Positions 13,983 through 61,791 of a stretch of 64,000 bases of DNA are shown here, in pieces. The stretch is from a phage. The notes beneath the pieces were generated by a model that did not search any database, was not told the DNA's origin, and saw only the letters and a program-made list of their open reading frames with translations. How positions within the stretch are numbered: the first letter of the stretch is position 1; each line of letters starts with the position of its first letter. The position numbers were made by a program, and so were the translations under genes. The stretch lies in sequence record PV419677.1; one strand, 5' to 3'.

Positions 13983-15962
13983 ATGGCTTTATTATCCCCG
14001 GGCATTGAGCTCAAAGAAACAACGGTACAAAGCACTGTTGTTCGTAACGCGACGGGTCGTGCGGCGCTGGTTGGTAAATTCCAGTGGGGCCCAGCTTTCC
14101 AGGTAACTCAAATTACAAACGAAGTTGAACTTGTTGATTTGTTTGGTGGTCCGAATAATGAAACAGCAGATTACTTTATGAGTGGGATGAACTTCCTGCA
14201 ATATGGTAATGACCTCCGTACTGTACGTGTTGTTAACCGTGACGAAGCTAAAAACGCATCCCCTATTGCTGGCAATATTGAAACTACCATCGTAACTGCT
14301 GGTACAAACTATGCTGTCGGTGATGTTATTCAGGTTAAACACAACCAGACTGTTGTTGAACCGGCTGGCCGTGTGACCAAGGTCGACGTTGATGGTAAAA
14401 TTCTGGCAATCTTTATTCCTACAAATAAGATTATTGCATTTGCCAAAACTATTAACCAGTATCCTAATTTAGGTAGTGCATGGACCGCGGAAGTTACAAC
14501 CACTTCTTCTGGTGTATCTGGTACCATCACCGTTGGGAAAATTGTTACCGATTCTGGCATTCTGTTGACTGAAGCAGAAAACAGTGAAGAAGCAATTACT
14601 TCTCTGGAATTCCAGGCATCACTAGCAAAATATGCAATGCCAGGTGTTGTTGCTCTTTATCCAGGTGAAATCGGTTCGACTTTGGAAGTTGAAATCGTAT
14701 CTAAAGCTGACTTTGAAAAAGGCGCAGCTGCAAATCTGAATATTTTCCCAGGCGGCGGAACGCGTGCTTCTGTGGCTCGTGCCGTGTTTAACTATGGCCC
14801 GCAGTCTGAAAACCAATATGCAATTATCGTTCGCCGCGATGGCGCAATCGTCGAAAACGTTGTTTTGTCTACCAAACAGGGCGAAAAAGATGTTTACGGT
14901 AATAACATTTACTTGGATGACTACTTTGCAAAAGGTACTTCCAACTACATCTATGCAACATCTCGCAACTGGCCTGCAGGCTTCAGTGGTATCATCAATC
15001 TGTCTGGTGGTATTTCTGCAAACGATAAGATTACCGCTGGTGATTTGATGCAAGGTTGGGACCTGTTTGCTGACCGTGAAGCACTGCATATTAACCTGCT
15101 TATCGCTGGTGCTGTTGCCGGTGAAGGTGATGCGACTGCTTCCACTGTTCAGAAACACGTGGTTTCTATTGCTGACGAACGTCAGGATTGTCTGGCATTT
15201 ATTTCCCCGCCGAAAGGTCTGTTGGTTAACGTTCCTCTGACCCGTGCAGTGGATAACCTGATTGACTGGCGTACAGGTGCTGGCGCATTTGATACTGATA
15301 ACATGAATATCAGCACGACTTATGCAGCGATTGATGGCAACTATAAATATCAGTATGATAAATATAATGACGTTAACCGTTGGGTTCCTCTGGCAGCTGA
15401 TATGGCTGGTCTGTGTGCTCGTACTGATGATGTTTCTCAGCCTTGGATGTCTCCGGCTGGTTATAACCGCGGTCAGATTCTGAACGTTCTGAAATTGGCT
15501 GTTGAACCACGTCAGACCCAACGTGACCGCATGTATCAAGAAGCTATCAACCCGGTTGTTGGTTTCGCAGGTGGTGATGGTTTTGTTCTGTATGGTGATA
15601 AGACTGCAACTAAAGTTCCATCTCCGATGGACCATATTAACGTTCGTCGTCTTACGAATATGCTGAAGAAAAATATCGGTGATGCATCCAAATATAAACT
15701 GTTTGAGCTTAACGATAACTTCACTCGTGCATCATTCCGTATGGAAACTTCTCAATACTTGGATGGTATTCGTGCACTTGGTGGCATTTATGAAGGTCGT
15801 GTAGTTTGTGATACTACTAACAACACCCCGGCGGTTATAGACCGAAATGAGTTTGTTGCTAGCATATATTTTAAACCAGCAAGGTCGATAAATTTTATCA
15901 CGCTTAATTTCGTAGCAACAAGCACGGGCGCTGATTTTGATGAGTTGATTGGAGCGAACTAA
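13983..15962 (+). CDS. gp18: Tail sheath protein gp18
   Basis: 659 aa as in T4; TATAAATA at 13946; strong RBS. Confidence 0.9.
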   Translation: MALLSPGIELKETTVQSTVVRNATGRAALVGKFQWGPAFQVTQITNEVELVDLFGGPNNETADYFMSGMNFLQYGNDLRTVRVVNRDEAKNASPIAGNIETTIVTAGTNYAVGDVIQVKHNQTVVEPAGRVTKVDVDGKILAIFIPTNKIIAFAKTINQYPNLGSAWTAEVTTTSSGVSGTITVGKIVTDSGILLTEAENSEEAITSLEFQASLAKYAMPGVVALYPGEIGSTLEVEIVSKADFEKGAAANLNIFPGGGTRASVARAVFNYGPQSENQYAIIVRRDGAIVENVVLSTKQGEKDVYGNNIYLDDYFAKGTSNYIYATSRNWPAGFSGIINLSGGISANDKITAGDLMQGWDLFADREALHINLLIAGAVAGEGDATASTVQKHVVSIADERQDCLAFISPPKGLLVNVPLTRAVDNLIDWRTGAGAFDTDNMNISTTYAAIDGNYKYQYDKYNDVNRWVPLAADMAGLCARTDDVSQPWMSPAGYNRGQILNVLKLAVEPRQTQRDRMYQEAINPVVGFAGGDGFVLYGDKTATKVPSPMDHINVRRLTNMLKKNIGDASKYKLFELNDNFTRASFRMETSQYLDGIRALGGIYEGRVVCDTTNNTPAVIDRNEFVASIYFKPARSINFITLNFVATSTGADFDELIGAN

Positions 15963-16029: not shown

Positions 16030-16635
16030 GTGATTATTTCTAAATTTGTTGAAGTTCAAATACGAAATCATGCAAAGTGGTGGAGCGAATACTTAGGTAA
16101 AACTCTAACATATCATGATGTGATTTCTGTACCAGTTGAACAAATGCCAGATAATAGTAATAAAAAGATTGAATGTTCCTGTGATGAATGTGGTGCACAT
16201 TTTGAACGTGGTATTCAGTTGCTTCGGCGCGTTGATAAACATTTATGTAAGACCTGCGCAAGAAAAGATGTGGGTGCAAAAGTTTCTGTAAAAATGGCTG
16301 GAGTATCAAGATTTGATTTACGAGGAGAAAACCACCCTAGATGGAAAGGTAATCGCAAAGAATATGATTTGTATGCCCAGCGCATTCATGCATTAACTCG
16401 TGGAAAACATCTAAAGAATATTTGGTCAACATGGGAAAATGCAGATAAGATAGGAAAATGTGGAGAAGAAGGTGCATATCAGCTTGACCATAAAGTTTCT
16501 ATTGCATATGGATTTTATAATCATATACCAGAGACAGTTATCGCTTCGCTCAACAATTTAGAAATAGTCACTTGGGAATCTAATAGGTCCAAAGGAAAAT
16601 CAAATAGTATTGACTTATGGGATATATTATCCTGA
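16030..16635 (+). CDS. HNH-family homing endonuclease (mob-like), GTG start
   Basis: 201 aa; Cys cluster CSCDECG...CKTC; C-terminal HNH motif ...YQLDHKVSIAYGF...NNLEIVTWESN; RBS AAGGA 7 nt before GTG. Confidence 0.75.
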   Translation: MIISKFVEVQIRNHAKWWSEYLGKTLTYHDVISVPVEQMPDNSNKKIECSCDECGAHFERGIQLLRRVDKHLCKTCARKDVGAKVSVKMAGVSRFDLRGENHPRWKGNRKEYDLYAQRIHALTRGKHLKNIWSTWENADKIGKCGEEGAYQLDHKVSIAYGFYNHIPETVIASLNNLEIVTWESNRSKGKSNSIDLWDILS

Positions 16636-16659: not shown

Positions 16660-16712
16660 CCGTAGAACCATTATACAATGCTATAAATAAAAGCATATCA
16701 TCGGTTCTACGG
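16660..16712. repeat. 10-bp inverted repeat CCGTAGAACC/GGTTCTACGG with 33-nt loop carrying TATAAATA (plus) and TATAAT with MotA-like box (minus)
   Basis: Read directly; lies between HNH gene and gene 19. Confidence 0.6.
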
Positions 16713-16778: not shown

Positions 16779-16830
16779 CATGCATCAGGGACGCGTACGC
16801 GCGACCTGTGTCTATAAAGAGGATTCCTTA

Positions 16831-17322
16831 ATGGAACTTACTGATATATCCAGAGCCTTCGAATCCGGCGACTTTGCTCGTCCTAACCTGTTCGAAGTCG
16901 AAATCCCATTCCTGGGTAAAAACTTTGCTTTCCATTGTAAAGCAGCCCCGATGCCAGCAGGCATTGTAGAAAAAGTTCCTGTCGGTTACATGAACCGTAA
17001 AATCAACGTTGCGGGCGACCGTACATTTGATGACTGGACTATTACGATTTATAACGACGATGCTCATAAAGTTCGTCAAGCAATTGTTGATTGGCAAAAC
17101 CTGTGTCACGGTATGACTAACGAAATCACCGGTGCAGCTCCTGCTGATTATAAGAAAACCGCTACTGTCCGCCAGTTCCATCGTGATGGCAAGACCGTTA
17201 CGAAAGAAGTTGTTATTACCGGCATGTGGCCAACCAACGTTGGGGAAGTCCAGATGGATTGGGATTCGAACAACGAAATTGAAACGTTCGAAGCAACGTT
17301 CGCAATTGACTGGTGGGAATAA
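16831..17322 (+). CDS. gp19: Tail tube protein gp19
   Basis: Start trimmed to ATG 16831 (RBS AGAGGA), giving 163 aa as in T4; ...RAFESGDFARPNLFEVEI... matches T4 gp19. Confidence 0.9.
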   Translation: MELTDISRAFESGDFARPNLFEVEIPFLGKNFAFHCKAAPMPAGIVEKVPVGYMNRKINVAGDRTFDDWTITIYNDDAHKVRQAIVDWQNLCHGMTNEITGAAPADYKKTATVRQFHRDGKTVTKEVVITGMWPTNVGEVQMDWDSNNEIETFEATFAIDWWE

Positions 17323-26730: not shown

Positions 26731-26827
26731 AATCTCTCACTTTTGATGTTATAAATATCATTATAAATTAGACCCGCTATACTTTTTTTCTCTGAAAGGA
26801 ATTAATAGTCACAAAGGGTCTAGAACC

Positions 26828-26855
26828 ATTATACCGCATTTTTATTTGAAGCAAA
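26828..26855 (-). promoter_or_regulatory. MotA-dependent middle-type promoter upstream of rnlB
   Basis: Minus strand TTTTGCTTCAAA (MotA box) then 13 nt then TATAAT. Confidence 0.55.
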
Positions 26856-26860
26856 AAGGG

Positions 26861-27124
26861 TCAGAATTTTACATACAGCATTGGCTTGGATTCTTGCCAA
26901 TCATAATTCCAGGTAAAAGATGTAAATTTTTCTGCTCGCAGAAATTCAGATATCTTTGCGCGGTTTCCTTCTTCATACTCTTTTTCAGAAACTGCCATAT
27001 TAACAGCATCTTTGCCATTCTCGGCGGCGGCGATAGCCACTTTGCGAAATATAGAAATAAAGTCATTTGCAACTTTATCTTGTGACTCTTTGGCTATTTG
27101 GCGTAGTTCTTCTGCGAATGTCAT
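26861..27124 (-). CDS. Hypothetical protein (T4 24.2-like by position)
   Basis: 87-aa ORF; RBS AAGGTGA; start overlaps upstream stop (ATGA). Confidence 0.5.
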   Translation of the reverse strand: MTFAEELRQIAKESQDKVANDFISIFRKVAIAAAENGKDAVNMAVSEKEYEEGNRAKISEFLRAEKFTSFTWNYDWQESKPMLYVKF

Positions 27125-29317: not shown

Positions 29318-29325
29318 TATAAATA
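29318..29325 (+). promoter_or_regulatory. T4-type late promoter TATAAATA (uvsW)
   Basis: Exact motif about 29 nt upstream of uvsW ATG 29354. Confidence 0.55.
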
Positions 29326-29353
29326 TAGATATATTTATTACCTTGGAATCATC

Positions 29354-30853
29354 ATGGATATTAAAATCAACTTTCTAAATTTTAGTCACGTGCATGTTGA
29401 ATGTGAAGATGGAATCTTCTACGAACTCCGTGATTACTTCAGCTTCGAAGCTGAAAACTATCGCTTCAATCCAAAATTCAAGCAGGGAGTTTGGGACGGA
29501 CGAATCCGCCTCCTGGATTACAATCGTAAATTACCATACGGTTTGGTTAATCAAATTAAAAAGTTCGCTGACCAGTTTGGCTATTCATTCTGGATTGACC
29601 CACAAATCACCGAGAAAGAAGAAATCTCTCGCGAAGAATTCGACAAATGGGTCGAGTCAAAAGAAATCTATTCAGGCAATACTAAGATAACTCCTCATTG
29701 GTATCAATCTGACGCCGTATATGATGGTCTGGTCAACAGAAGAAAGATTCTGAACTTACCTACGTCTGCGGGTAAAAGCCTCATCCAGGCGCTTCTGGCG
29801 CGATATTATCTCGAGAACTATGAAGGCAAAGTACTTATCCTTGTTCCTACAACTGCGCTCGTTGACCAGATGATTAATGACTTTGTTGATTATCGTCTGT
29901 TCCCTCGTGAAGCTTGTCTGGGTATTCGTTCTGGTACCAAACGCGATTCTGATGCGATGATTTATGTATCGACTTATCAGACGGCTGTAAAACAACCTAA
30001 AGAATGGTTTGAACAGTTTGGTCAGTTTATGAATGACGAATGTCATATGGCGACAGGTAAATCAATTTCGACGGTTATCGAAGGCCTTACGAATTGTATG
30101 TTTAAATTTGGTTTGTCAGGTTCACTCCGTGACGGCAAAGCCAACCTTATGCAATATATGGGTCTGTTTGGTGATATCTTTAAACCGGTATCAACATCTA
30201 AATTGATGGAAGATGGTCAGGTCACTGACCTTAAAATAAATAGTATTTTCCTTCGTTACCCTGATGAATTTACCGTTAAAATGAAAGGTAAAACTTATCA
30301 GGATGAAATTAAGGTAATTACAAAAGCTACACGCCGAAATAAATGGGTAACAAATCTTGCTCTCAAGCTTGCTAAAAAAGATGAAAACGTCTTTTTGATG
30401 TTTAAGAATATCGAGCACGGTAAATCGATGTTTGAAATGCTTAAGGAAGCTGGTCATGAGAAAGTGTATTATGTTTCCGGGGAAGTTGATACCGAAACTC
30501 GTAATGCATTAAAGGTCATGGCAGAGAATGGAAAAGGAATTATTGTTGTAGCTTCATACGGTGTATTTTCGACGGGTATTTCCGTTAAAAACCTCCATCA
30601 TATTATTTTCGCTCACCCGGTCAAATCAAAGGTAATTGTACTCCAGACAATTGGCCGCGTGCTTCGAAAACATGAATCCAAATCGACCGCAAACGTTTTT
30701 GATATCGTGGATGATATGGGGGTCAAACCCAAATCAGCAAATGCTAAAAAGAAATATGTTCATTTGAACTTTGCTCTAAAGCATGGTCTTGAACGCATAC
30801 AACGATATGCAGACGAACAATTCAATTATGTAATTAAACAGGTGGAAATATAA
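29354..30853 (+). CDS. uvsW: UvsW DNA/RNA helicase
   Basis: N-terminus MDIK..F..FSHV...C matches T4 UvsW; helicase motif I PTSAGKS and motif II DECH; TATAAATA at 29318; track ORF trimmed to ATG 29354. Confidence 0.9.
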   Translation: MDIKINFLNFSHVHVECEDGIFYELRDYFSFEAENYRFNPKFKQGVWDGRIRLLDYNRKLPYGLVNQIKKFADQFGYSFWIDPQITEKEEISREEFDKWVESKEIYSGNTKITPHWYQSDAVYDGLVNRRKILNLPTSAGKSLIQALLARYYLENYEGKVLILVPTTALVDQMINDFVDYRLFPREACLGIRSGTKRDSDAMIYVSTYQTAVKQPKEWFEQFGQFMNDECHMATGKSISTVIEGLTNCMFKFGLSGSLRDGKANLMQYMGLFGDIFKPVSTSKLMEDGQVTDLKINSIFLRYPDEFTVKMKGKTYQDEIKVITKATRRNKWVTNLALKLAKKDENVFLMFKNIEHGKSMFEMLKEAGHEKVYYVSGEVDTETRNALKVMAENGKGIIVVASYGVFSTGISVKNLHHIIFAHPVKSKVIVLQTIGRVLRKHESKSTANVFDIVDDMGVKPKSANAKKKYVHLNFALKHGLERIQRYADEQFNYVIKQVEI

Positions 30854-31080
30854 TGAAATCCTTTGAAGAAATTATGTACGAAGCATCAATTGAAGGCTTT
30901 ATGGCTAAGATTGGTTCCTGTCAGACCATGGACGGTCTGAAGGAGTTGGAAGGCTATTATAAAAAACGCAGCAAAGAAGCCGAACTAAAAGATTCCGATG
31001 ATATCAGTGTTCGCGATGCTCTTGCCGGTAAACGCGCCGAGCTTGAGGATATGGACGAAGACGAAGACGAAGATTTCTAA
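30853..31080 (+). CDS. uvsW.1: UvsW.1 small acidic protein
   Basis: 75 aa; ATG overlaps uvsW stop; acidic C-terminus. Confidence 0.7.
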   Translation: MKSFEEIMYEASIEGFMAKIGSCQTMDGLKELEGYYKKRSKEAELKDSDDISVRDALAGKRAELEDMDEDEDEDF

Positions 31081-31138
31081 ATAAAAAGGCCCCAACCAAA
31101 AGGAAGGGGCAAAACCAAAAATGGTTAACAACACTAGC

Positions 31139-31306
31139 TAAATTAAAAGTTGGGTCTCGTTCAGTTGCTCTTCTGTATTTTCCGTAACTGGCAAACTCTG
31201 AACATAATTATAACAGGCGCCCGGATGCACCGGACCTTGGTCTGTATCCACAACCAATGCAGAATCGATTGGAGTTTTACAGACAACACAAATCTTATCT
31301 GACATG
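31139..31306 (-). CDS. Small Cys-containing protein (uvsY.-2-like)
   Basis: 55-aa ORF below the track threshold, found by hand: MSDKICVVCKTP...HPGACYNY; RBS GGAGACAATC before ATG 31306. Confidence 0.5.
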
Positions 31307-31444
31307 ATTGTCTCCTCAGTTAAACTTACATATCTATTTAGTGCTCTTCATAATAGCAGCACGAGCTTTCATCTCATTAACAATTTCAGTTATTCGGTTT
31401 GCAGAGATAACCATCTCGTCGAGAATCTTACTAATATTTTTCAT

Positions 31445-31678
31445 TTAATTTTCCTTAAAGTATCTCATACCAGTATCTATCCCCATATTGTGAGAATAGA
31501 ACGCATCATCGATGTATCCTGCAAATTTACCTTTAACATAGATAACATCTTCACCGCAAGGGTGGTCAGCGCAGATACGAATATCTGCACGATTCAATTT
31601 CCATTCCTTCATCATATACTTAATTTCTTCTTCGAACTCTTCGTCTTGGTTAAACGCATCGTCGATAGAATATCGCAT
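31445..31678 (-). CDS. Hypothetical protein (uvsY.-1-like)
   Basis: 77-aa ORF directly downstream of uvsY. Confidence 0.55.
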   Translation of the reverse strand: MRYSIDDAFNQDEEFEEEIKYMMKEWKLNRADIRICADHPCGEDVIYVKGKFAGYIDDAFYSHNMGIDTGMRYFKEN

Positions 31679-32112
31679 TATTTGCCTGCCTCGAATTGTC
31701 TTATTTCTAACATATGTTTAAGTGCGAAACTTCGCGACTTAACACCATCTAATGCAGCGCTACAGAAGTCCTGGAGTAGTGCCCAATACTGAATTGAAGT
31801 ATCAATCTTCAGTATGTTTGAATCTGCTGCCATGACTGTTTTCAATTCCGACTTCTCGTATACATCCATGCATACCTCTTCCCCTGGGTCACCTCTTCCA
31901 GTATAATGGTCTAGTCGTTTTTTCAGTGCAGTTTTCTTCTGAATCTCAAGACGCATTATTTCTTTCTTGCAGTTGGTATACAATCTCAACCATTTGCTAT
32001 GCAACAAAACGTTGTTTTGTGTTTCATATTGAAGTTGCGTACCATCAATTTTTAAATCCGCATCTAACTCATCCTGAAAGACTTCTAACTTATATTCAAT
32101 CTCTGTTTTCAT
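31678..32112 (-). CDS. uvsY: Recombination mediator UvsY
   Basis: Start trimmed to Met11 (MKTEIEY...); aligns with remembered T4 UvsY (..QYE..NNV.L.SKWL...EIMR.E.QKK.ALK.RLD.Y.GRGD...FEAGK); MotA-type middle promoter upstream. Confidence 0.85.
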   Translation of the reverse strand: MKTEIEYKLEVFQDELDADLKIDGTQLQYETQNNVLLHSKWLRLYTNCKKEIMRLEIQKKTALKKRLDHYTGRGDPGEEVCMDVYEKSELKTVMAADSNILKIDTSIQYWALLQDFCSAALDGVKSRSFALKHMLEIRQFEAGK

Positions 32113-32140
32113 AATGTATCCAATGTAAGGGTCTAGAACC

Positions 32141-32167
32141 ATTATACAGCCATAAAATTAAAGCATT
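32141..32167 (-). promoter_or_regulatory. MotA-dependent middle promoter of uvsY, candidate ori(uvsY)/oriF equivalent
   Basis: Minus strand AATGCTTTAA (MotA box) then 12 nt then TATAAT, upstream of the uvsY start. Confidence 0.6.
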
Positions 32168-32555
32168 AACCGTTTTGACTTAGCTGAATCCTGATTTGTT
32201 CGAGGGTGTCAGGGTCATCAACAATGCTGAACTGAACCGTTACGATAATGGAGTTATCATCATACATAGGGACAACTGCAACCTGTAGATTGCTTATTCT
32301 TGGTTCGAAGTTCCGCACCGCGGAGACGATGTTGCGTTTAATGGTATCTGTAATTAACGGTGTGATATTCTCAAAAAGCTGATTACTTATATCACATCCA
32401 AATTCAGGCATAAAAGGCCGTGACCCTTTTCTTGTGGTGATTATTCCCAGAAGACTGTTCTTAACAGACCTTGCACCAGTTACTTTAGCAACGTCTTTAT
32501 CCCAACTTGTAGATAAGTCGGGAGATACATCGCTATACATTTTGTTTATATTCAT
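32166..32555 (-). CDS. gp25: Baseplate wedge protein gp25
   Basis: 129 aa (T4 132); ...IITTRKGSRPF.PEFGCD...QLFEN.TPL... matches T4 gp25. Confidence 0.9.
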   Translation of the reverse strand: MNINKMYSDVSPDLSTSWDKDVAKVTGARSVKNSLLGIITTRKGSRPFMPEFGCDISNQLFENITPLITDTIKRNIVSAVRNFEPRISNLQVAVVPMYDDNSIIVTVQFSIVDDPDTLEQIRIQLSQNG

Positions 32556-33179
32556 TTACATAAACTTAAAGAATTCTTTAAGCCCCTTAATTACATGGAC
32601 AGAATGCGCTCCGCACTCACAAGAGATAGGAATAGCCATTTGGACCTGTGGCTTGAGAAGTTCTTCGGTTAGTGCATTTATATCATCGAGGGTAATTGCG
32701 TTGTATAGGTCCTCGATTTCGGCTTCATTTAAGTCATCAACAACGATGCGCTCGCCACCTTCCGTGATAATATATTCGATACAACAAGCAATCATTTTAC
32801 CTTTATCGCCGTCTTCAAACAACCCAGGATAACGGAATTTAATTTTAAATGCCCCGAAATCACGAATAACTTCAGACTCATCCACGATGCTTGCACGACT
32901 TATAGTCACAGGAATATCTTGTTCCTTTCCGCATTCGCATACCCATGTATGCTCGACGTTAACAGCTCCGAGACTATTTGCCCAGAGATTAATAAGAAGC
33001 AGCTCGGCTTCCTGTTTGTTTAACCCTTTAGCATCAGTGCATTTATTAAGCAGTTCAATTATTGCAGGTTCCATACGCTTTTCTAATTTTGCCTGAAGCA
33101 AATCTTTGTATTCGCGCAATGTAAAAGCCCTACAATTTATAGTTTTATTTTTAATTTGGACAATAAATTCATAAGTCAT
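32556..33179 (-). CDS. gp26: Baseplate hub subunit gp26
   Basis: Start trimmed to ATG 33179 (RBS AAGGAG), giving 207 aa (T4 208); divergent late promoter shared with gene 51. Confidence 0.8.
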   Translation of the reverse strand: MTYEFIVQIKNKTINCRAFTLREYKDLLQAKLEKRMEPAIIELLNKCTDAKGLNKQEAELLLINLWANSLGAVNVEHTWVCECGKEQDIPVTISRASIVDESEVIRDFGAFKIKFRYPGLFEDGDKGKMIACCIEYIITEGGERIVVDDLNEAEIEDLYNAITLDDINALTEELLKPQVQMAIPISCECGAHSVHVIKGLKEFFKFM

Positions 33180-33196
33180 AATTTGCTCCTTTACTG

Positions 33197-33208
33197 TATT
33201 TATAAATA
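33197..33208. promoter_or_regulatory. Bidirectional late promoter TATTTATAAATA (gene 26 leftward, gene 51 rightward)
   Basis: Overlapping TATAAATA on both strands between divergent genes 26 and 51. Confidence 0.55.
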
Positions 33209-33232
33209 TCAATAAAGATAAAAGGGGATTCT

Positions 33233-33985
33233 ATGGCCAATATCGTAAGATGTGAAATGCCAGACGGAGTTCATCGTTTCAAACCGTTTACAGTCGCTGA
33301 TTACCGTGATTTACTGCTTGTGCGAAACGACATGAACAACAAACCCGTCGAAGAACAAAAACAATTATTAGACGAACTGTTGGAAGATTATTTTGGAGAG
33401 TATCCGAAAGCATGGAGACCATACATATTCTTGAAGGTATTCACTTCCTCTATCGGTAAGACAAAAGTCCCGGTAGCGTTCGAATGTCAAAAATGTAAAA
33501 AGACAAAGCAGACTTTGTTTAATATGAGCCAAGGTCCATTGACAAATCCAACAATGGAAACCGCGGGGATAAAAATACAATTTAAGTTCCCTGAAGTAGA
33601 ATATAAAGATAAGTCGGAGCTTGTTCTAAACACCATCCAGACTGTCGAAGACTCAGAACAAAAATACAATTGGGAAGACCTTCCTGAAGAAACGAAGATG
33701 CAGGTTATTGATGCAATTGATATAGAGAGTCTCGAAGAGCTCCTTAAGAAAATGCATTCAGTTTATATTCCATTTACATATGGTTGCTGCGAAAAACACA
33801 AAACCGAATATACAGACTTGATTGATGTCTTTAAGCTTATCCTTAACCCGGATGAAGTCTTTGTATTTTATCAAATTAACCACTTACTGGTAAAGAATCA
33901 ATATACACTGGATAGCATCATGCACATGATTCCTATCGAACGAGGTATTGCTTTATCGTTAGTTGAGAAGGACTTGAAGAAATGA
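33233..33985 (+). CDS. gp51: Baseplate hub assembly protein gp51
   Basis: 250 aa (T4 249); TATAAATA at 33201. Confidence 0.8.
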
Positions 33986-50312: not shown

Positions 50313-50591
50313 TTAAATTGCTTCGACAACTACCGTTTGTTTCTGGAAGTCCATTTTGCATGAAATAGCCAAAATGTGGTTATCAATTTTAAATGGAACA
50401 ATTGCAAATGCTGCACCAGGCGTGAGTTGAACAGTGATTGCATCAACTGCATCCGGGAACATGATTTCCAGAATAGCAGACAAACGACCGTGCACTTTTA
50501 GTTCAGTCGACACGTCGACGCTTTCGTATAGATAATCAGATACAATCTGACTAAAAAGTACTTTAACAATTTCAGAATATGTAGGAAACAT
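50313..50591 (-). CDS. Hypothetical protein
   Basis: 92-aa ORF; MotA-box-like promoter upstream. Confidence 0.5.
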   Translation of the reverse strand: MFPTYSEIVKVLFSQIVSDYLYESVDVSTELKVHGRLSAILEIMFPDAVDAITVQLTPGAAFAIVPFKIDNHILAISCKMDFQKQTVVVEAI

Positions 50592-50638: not shown

Positions 50639-50666
50639 ATTATACCATAAAATTTTTAAAGCGTTA
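50639..50666 (-). promoter_or_regulatory. Middle-type promoter (imperfect MotA box)
   Basis: Minus strand AACGCTTTAA then spacer then TATAAT. Confidence 0.45.

Positions 50667-60132: not shown

Positions 60133-61791
<1,659 letters not shown>

Follow-up and report, generated by a model that had tools for sequence, protein, structure and literature searches.

A probable MotA-type middle promoter in front of uvsY in a Gaprivervirus genome and its possible use as a replication origin

The closest described counterpart of the site analysed here is the uvsY promoter (PuvsY) of phage T4, together with the replication origin oriF. A MotA-dependent middle promoter has the form (a/t)(a/t)(a/t)TGCTTtA, a gap of 12 ± 1 bp and TAtaaT, and the start of T4 PuvsY has been mapped to position 115371 (PMC2988021). 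In the T4 genome, the stop codon TAA of gene 25 (product gp25) is followed by TGCTTCA-N13-TATAAT and then by uvsY, and the mapped start is the seventh nucleotide after TATAAT. T4 origins of the oriF/oriG type contain a middle-mode promoter, the transcript of which forms a persistent R-loop in an unwinding element (DUE); this element can be replaced by unrelated unwinding elements, and the R-loops are removed by UvsW, which is made late (PMC3016281). The T4 record annotates oriF, oriG and oriA at +51, +65 and +51 of the transcripts from PuvsY, P34i and P56, respectively, and only about three of the 58 middle promoters that PMC2988021 gives for T4 are annotated at origins. The oriG (ori(34)) system follows the same promoter-plus-unwinding-element logic, its middle promoter P34i being followed by GTATAATGGTCCCAGAG, which is close to GTATAATGGTTCTAGAC at the site described here. 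Unlike this site, P34i is an antisense promoter inside a late gene; it lies outside the DNA analysed, and an ortholog was found in gene 34 of Shigella phage SP18 (discussed below).

The site lies in a 64-kb stretch of phage DNA, all of which was analysed and which is referred to as the window. A 2.3-kb query around the site is 99.5% identical to the Escherichia phages TH22, TH55 and UPEC07 and 97.5% identical to SP18, and by sequence comparison the window belongs to Gaprivervirus (SP18/VR7 group; Tevenvirinae, Straboviridae).

A MotA-type promoter between gene 25 and uvsY

The plus strand of the locus carries uvsW and uvsW.1, and the minus strand carries uvsY.-2, uvsY.-1, uvsY, 25 and 26, followed by the divergent genes 51, 27, 28 and 29 (Table 1). 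The T4 gene order around uvsY is matched, so that the site shares the gene neighbourhood of T4 oriF, including the late-expressed uvsW. Pfam searches confirmed UvsY, gp25, UvsW, UvsW.1 and DUF2685 (uvsY.-2). The GC and AT skews track gene orientation only, with the cumulative minimum at about 33.2 kb, at the divergent 26/51 junction, and an Rfam scan of 30800-33400 returned no family near the threshold.

Table 1. Features of the uvsY locus and of related promoter sites. Positions are those of the window unless another sequence is named.
Feature	Position	Strand	Basis or remark
uvsY coding sequence, 144 aa	31678..32112	-	PF11056, E=2.4e-50; ~60% identity to T4 UvsY
Stop codon TAA of gene 25 (baseplate wedge)	32166..32168	-	gp25 = PF04965; TAA supplies the 5' A/T-rich portion of the box
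MotA box TAATGCTTTA, centre near -30	32159..32168	-	full match to the published consensus
TGCTTTA core of the MotA box	32165-32159	-	read with the gp25 TAA gives TAATGCTTTA
Spacer, 12 nt	32147..32158	-	within the published 12 ± 1
Sigma-70 -10 hexamer TATAAT	32141..32146	-	TATAATG invariant in an eight-genus alignment
Predicted transcription start A, 7th nt after the -10	32134	-	analogy with the mapped T4 PuvsY start
Conserved start-site segment GGTTCTAGACCCTT	32127..32140	-	repeated at the rnlB promoter; relatives in other genera
+1..+50, counterpart of the T4 oriF unwinding element	32085..32134	-	70% A+T, low duplex stability
uvsY.-1, 36-aa ORF and uvsY.-2, downstream genes in the same transcription unit as uvsY	31138..31678	-	ORFs, Pfam
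uvsY.-1	31445-31678	-	
uvsY.-2 (DUF2685)	31138-31305	-	Pfam
uvsW	29354-30853	+	PF21241 and helicase domains
Late promoter TATAAATA before uvsW	29318-29325	+	uvsW with promoter spans 29318..30853
Second MotA-type promoter TTTGCTTCA-N13-TATAAT	26828..26855	-	followed 97 nt downstream by rnlB, an ORF that has RNA ligase 2 domains
P34i ortholog	1631-1656 of the SP18 gene 34 sequence compared (outside the window)	-	

Read on the minus strand, gene 25 ends in ...caa aac ggt TAA, after which come TGCTTTA, attttatggctg, TATAAT, ggttctAgacccttacattggatacatt and the uvsY ATG. This arrangement agrees with the published middle-promoter consensus at every position (PMC2988021). The pattern WWTGCTTTA-N12-TATAAT has a single match in the window and none in 100 dinucleotide-preserving shuffles, and with one mismatch allowed there are two matches, compared with 0.21 expected. 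In a sigma-70 scan of 30800-33400, the uvsY -10 was not listed with any -35 partner, there being no TTGACA-like -35 at 16-18 nt, and RNA folding of the uvsY leader gave no significant structure. The first-pass annotation had placed a MotA box and TATAAT directly upstream of uvsY on the minus strand, and both are present. The 12-nt gap that it reported holds when counted from TGCTTTA, but from AATGCTTTAA, as the box was written there, the gap is 11 nt.

As at T4 PuvsY, the box overlaps the gp25 stop codon and the promoter lies directly upstream of uvsY, with a MotA box of the form TGCTT(T/C)A, a -10 of GTATAAT and a predicted start at the seventh nucleotide. The two sites differ in the spacer, which has 12 nt here and 13 in T4, where it contains a small palindrome (CACGTT..AACGTG) that the window lacks. 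They also differ in the leader, which has 22 nt here and 44 in T4 (ATG at +23 and +45, respectively), the uvsY ATG at 32112 lying 28 nt past the -10. The leader is shorter because the UvsY of the window has seven extra N-terminal residues, and the C/A-rich T4 leader sequence CCAATAACAACCAATAACAATT has no counterpart.

The position of the promoter also bears on the annotation of uvsY. An ORF of 154 aa, which is the coding sequence in the SP18 record, opens at the ATG at 32142, which overlaps the last bases of TATAAT and sits upstream of the predicted transcription start. Similarity to T4 UvsY is seen only downstream of the ATG at 32112, as is the match to the Pfam UvsY family, which fits the 144-aa form. 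The 154-aa annotation is probably ten codons too long. The practical value of the site lies mainly in such annotation, as it fixes the uvsY promoter and a probable start site in SP18/VR7-like phages, and as the uvsY start of the SP18 record turns out to begin inside the -10.

The promoter class in the genome and in related phages

The MotA protein of Gaprivervirus is only ~34% identical to that of T4 (and ~41% to those of Dhakavirus and Mosigvirus), hence box usage was tested directly by positional enrichment, and the box preference assigned to the Gaprivervirus MotA rests on this test rather than on biochemistry. GCTT precedes eight of the 39 minus-strand TATAAT sites at a distance of 17-19 nt (0.55 expected, P=1.3e-7), and no other offset of GCTT before minus-strand TATAAT has more than one case. 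A strict promoter pattern gave nine minus-strand matches and no plus-strand match in the window, among them sites upstream of rnlB, the DNA ligase gene and the dCMP deaminase gene and one near the position of T4 PnrdA. The T4 rnlB, DNA ligase and dCMP deaminase genes have mapped middle promoters (PMC2988021). The promoter before rnlB had been put forward in the first-pass annotation as a second one of the MotA type, and it was recovered at 26855-26828. It can also be observed that the genome retains both the GCTT box and its spacing to the -10, even though the MotA is unusually divergent.

MotA (PF09114 and PF09158) and AsiA (PF09010) are encoded by SP18, with both genes outside the window; SP18 motA is found at 163484-164092 of GQ981382. 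MotA proteins at least 95% identical to that of SP18 occur in 34 phage records, and the uvsY locus is common to 33 records (at least 80% of the query), in line with this count.

SP18, VR20, VR25, VR26 and the window share one and the same intergenic sequence between gene 25 and uvsY, whereas codons close to it differ among them. The uvsY upstream regions of 13 further genera were collected, and eight genera were aligned. The full TGCTT box after the gp25 stop codon is found in T4, Mosigvirus and the window, and in T4 and Mosigvirus it overlaps the stop codon as it does here. Variant boxes (TGCTGTT, TGCTAAC, CGCTTTCA) occur in Dhakavirus, Kanagawavirus, Jiaodavirus, Gelderlandvirus and Karamvirus, and the distance from the -10 to the uvsY ATG is 28-31 nt in the clade of Gaprivervirus, Dhakavirus and Kanagawavirus. 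In RB43 and Miro, for which no MotA appeared among the matches listed, a sigma-70 -35 element (TTGACT), separated by 17 nt from the -10 in front of uvsY, replaces the MotA box, which suggests that the activator element was swapped and the promoter site kept.

A 20-nt segment, TATAATGGTTCTAGACCCTT, which comprises the -10 and the first transcribed bases, is identical at uvsY (32127-32146) and at rnlB (26814-26833), both on the minus strand; two such matches, with up to three mismatches allowed, were found in none of 100 shuffles. The rnlB copy is flanked by a near-direct repeat (26810-26820 and 26852-26862). Related start segments follow the -10 at a further site at 50639, at the uvsY promoters of Mosigvirus, Jiaodavirus, Gelderlandvirus and T4, and at P34i of T4 and SP18 (GGTCCCAGAG). 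The idea that this module is a genus-wide repeat was rejected, because both copies were found in only one other member of the genus; a search of viral contigs with 18 nt returned five stretches only.

The downstream segment and possible origin activity

The segment +1..+50 consists of the 22-nt leader, codons 1-9 of uvsY and the first base of codon 10, so that with a leader of 22 rather than 44 nt the DUE-equivalent is mostly coding here. It has 70% A+T and a duplex dG of -56.9 kcal/mol, which compares with 70% and -58.4 kcal/mol at T4 oriF and with 60% and -63.0 kcal/mol at oriG. It belongs to the least stable 2.7% of the 50-bp segments of the window (41% GC), or 5% within ±1 kb, and lies in a local dip of stability beginning at the promoter. 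In A+T content, in near-equal duplex stability and in an unstructured nascent RNA, the segment is like that of T4 oriF. A conserved T4-like unwinding element, for which the first-pass annotation had pointed to an alignment with T4, is absent by that comparison: no homology to the T4 DUE extends past about +12 except at the uvsY coding start, and the ungapped identity over +13..+62 is 24%. As the T4 DUE can be replaced by unrelated elements, the origin idea is not refuted by this divergence in sequence.

The weight of the physical resemblance was assessed on T4 middle promoters with mapped starts as a positive control, of which 33 were used for stability, supercoil opening and hybrid energy and 39 for RNA structure. 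Nearest-neighbour duplex stability over +1..+30, +50, +80 and +100 was discarded as an origin discriminator, as oriF and oriG came out mid-range among the 33 promoters. Supercoil opening was computed in 4-kb contexts, with sigma set to -0.055, by approximating stress-induced duplex destabilisation with a single bubble. The opening probability was ~0 at T4 oriF, 0.04 at oriG, 0.81 at oriA and ~0 at the window site, and the measure was likewise set aside, being ~0 at oriF yet high at several non-origin promoters. The hybrid advantage, which is the RNA:DNA minus the DNA:DNA energy (Sugimoto versus SantaLucia parameters), was -0.9 kcal/mol in the window, -1.7 at oriF and -2.1 at oriG, while other T4 promoters ranged from -5.4 to +6.4; with oriF and oriG ranking about ninth to tenth of 33, it does not discriminate either. 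The nascent RNA of the window site is nearly unstructured, with an ensemble energy of -3.5 kcal/mol, compared with -1.2 at T4 oriF and -4.0 at both oriG and oriA. The oriF segment is the least structured +1..+50 of the 39, but oriG and oriA reach only the upper third, and this weak trend, which was gone at +1..+80, was left unused.

None of the four kinds of measure separates oriF and oriG from about 30 other T4 middle promoters, hence the resemblance of the window segment to oriF carries little weight. The unwinding prediction suggested in the first-pass annotation thus gives an A+T content and a stability equal to those of T4 oriF, but by measures that miss T4's own origins, and since they lack discriminating power such a computational check cannot decide on origin activity either way. 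In addition, three other candidate promoters in the window, at 61030, 43481 and 2082, are as unstable downstream or more so. Stability, supercoil-opening, hybrid-energy and RNA-structure measures all miss the T4 origins, and in-silico DUE prediction is therefore best avoided when T4-type origins are called.

With regard to the other R-loop origin of T4, SP18 gene 34 keeps an antisense ortholog of P34i with the sequence TTTGCTTCAAGAATATTCAGCGTATAATGGTCCCAGAG. This segment has 91% nucleotide identity to T4, compared with 68% for the gene, a value within the top 1.8% for windows of that size. From the MotA box to the -10, the promoter proper has changes in the spacer only. This suggests selection on P34i in the genus, although the conservation could alternatively reflect a conserved peptide. 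A start segment of the form GTATAATGG-TyCyAGA-CC is common to PuvsY of the window, to P34i of T4 and SP18 and to the uvsY promoters of other genera. The searchable literature yielded no study that mapped origins or promoters in Gaprivervirus or in any other relative apart from T4.

The element in front of uvsY is very probably a MotA/AsiA-dependent middle-mode promoter and the ortholog of T4 PuvsY. This reading is well supported because the consensus match, the positional orthology, the identity in five members of the genus, the genome-wide promoter class and the presence of MotA and AsiA in the genus all agree with it, and the likeness to T4 middle promoters that the first-pass annotation had proposed is borne out by the same points together with the missing sigma-70 -35. 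By position, the site is orthologous to T4 PuvsY, whereas its MotA dependence and its start site are what we infer from the analogy. A coincidental match, or an early promoter of the host sigma-70 type that needs no MotA, is disfavoured and would be very surprising: the -10 is a perfect sigma-70 hexamer and the MotA of the genus is far from that of T4, but the pattern was absent from all shuffles, a TTGACA-like -35 is lacking at 16-18 nt, the box stands where it does in T4 and Mosigvirus, and GCTT shows a sharp genome-wide positional enrichment. To judge from its sequence, the uvsY promoter is an ordinary, well-conserved T4-like middle promoter, of the kind by which such phages turn on uvsY some minutes after infection begins. 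If the steps known from T4 apply, phage AsiA would remodel region 4 of host sigma-70 early in infection, phage MotA would bind the TAATGCTTTA box at -30 and region 2 of sigma-70 the TATAAT. Transcription would then start near the A at 32134 and proceed through the 22-nt leader into uvsY, uvsY.-1 and uvsY.-2, and the transcript would supply the UvsY recombination mediator ahead of replication.

Whether this middle promoter also serves as an origin, as PuvsY does at T4 oriF, where the activity is proven, is a point that sequence alone cannot decide. The chances are about even that it just drives uvsY and plays no part in replication, the origins of the genus lying elsewhere or replication being mainly recombination-dependent. 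The majority of middle promoters in T4 do not act as origins, the sequence of the T4 DUE has not been conserved, and a short leader is found in the clade of Gaprivervirus, Dhakavirus and Kanagawavirus. The rnlB promoter moreover has the same 20-nt module of -10 and start, and within the part of the T4 record that was examined there is no annotated origin close to rnlB. This reading has to contend with the positional orthology to a proven origin, with downstream A+T and stability equal to those of oriF and with the retention of P34i in the genus. In a combination of promoter and origin, which is a plausible, if tentative, possibility, the middle transcript would form a persistent R-loop over +1..+50 and prime the leading strand until shut off by late UvsW. 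This would fit the last three points as well as the gene order (uvsW, uvsY.-2, uvsY.-1, uvsY, 25, 26 and divergent 51), the nearly unstructured nascent RNA, the retained late promoter of uvsW and the finding that the T4 DUE needs no specific sequence (PMC3016281). Against it stand the missing DUE homology beyond the uvsY coding start, the short leader and mostly coding DUE-equivalent, the mid-range position of oriF and oriG among about 30 non-origin promoters by all four physical measures, and the similarly unstable or less stable segments at 61030, 43481 and 2082. Furthermore, the rules for R-loop persistence at oriF and oriG are an open question in the same review (PMC3016281). Positional orthology, weighed against the roughly three in 58 T4 middle promoters at origins, leaves origin activity at the uvsY promoter possible but somewhat short of probable.

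If the origin reading holds, the site would resemble ColE1-type (RNA II) replication, in which the transcript stays hybridised and is cut by RNase H to give a leading-strand primer. Unlike ColE1, the site has no long structured pre-primer RNA and no G-rich anchoring segment, and a T4-type system differs further in needing a phage activator and an unwinding element. A broader proposal is that the R-loop origin pair of T4, PuvsY and antisense P34i, is conserved in Gaprivervirus with both members still acting as origins despite the ~34% MotA identity, that P34i is protected at synonymous sites, and that the shared GTATAATGG-TyCyAGA-CC segment is part of origin competence; this is speculative and, taken as a whole, unlikely. 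Origin activity at the uvsY promoter, if true, would be the first evidence of a T4 R-loop origin that is conserved by position in another genus with its unwinding element replaced, and it would provide a natural comparison for what turns about 3 of some 60 middle promoters into origins.

Further MotA-type sites in the window

A further site of this type, CGCTTTA-N12-TATAAT, lies on the minus strand at 50639-50663, 47 nt upstream of a 92-aa DUF7355 ORF (50313-50591), and has a start segment of the form GG..TCTAGGTCCTTT. It is likely a further middle promoter, in which C replaces the first T of TGCTT, a variant shared with the uvsY promoters of Gelderlandvirus and Karamvirus.

Another MotA-type match, at 16695-16670 on the minus strand, shares positions with a putative late promoter TATAAATA on the plus strand (16682-16689), which precedes the tail tube gene gp19 (16780-17322); either may be the functional signal. 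Both the match and the late promoter are enclosed by a perfect inverted repeat with 10-bp arms (CCGTAGAACC at 16660-16669 and GGTTCTACGG at 16703-16712). An ORF of 162-201 aa without a Pfam match (16030-16635, plus strand) is located between gp19 and a 659-aa ORF at 13983-15962, which, from its size and position, we take to be the tail sheath gene gp18. As the gp18 and gp19 genes are adjacent in T4, the ORF at 16030-16635 looks like an insertion between the two.
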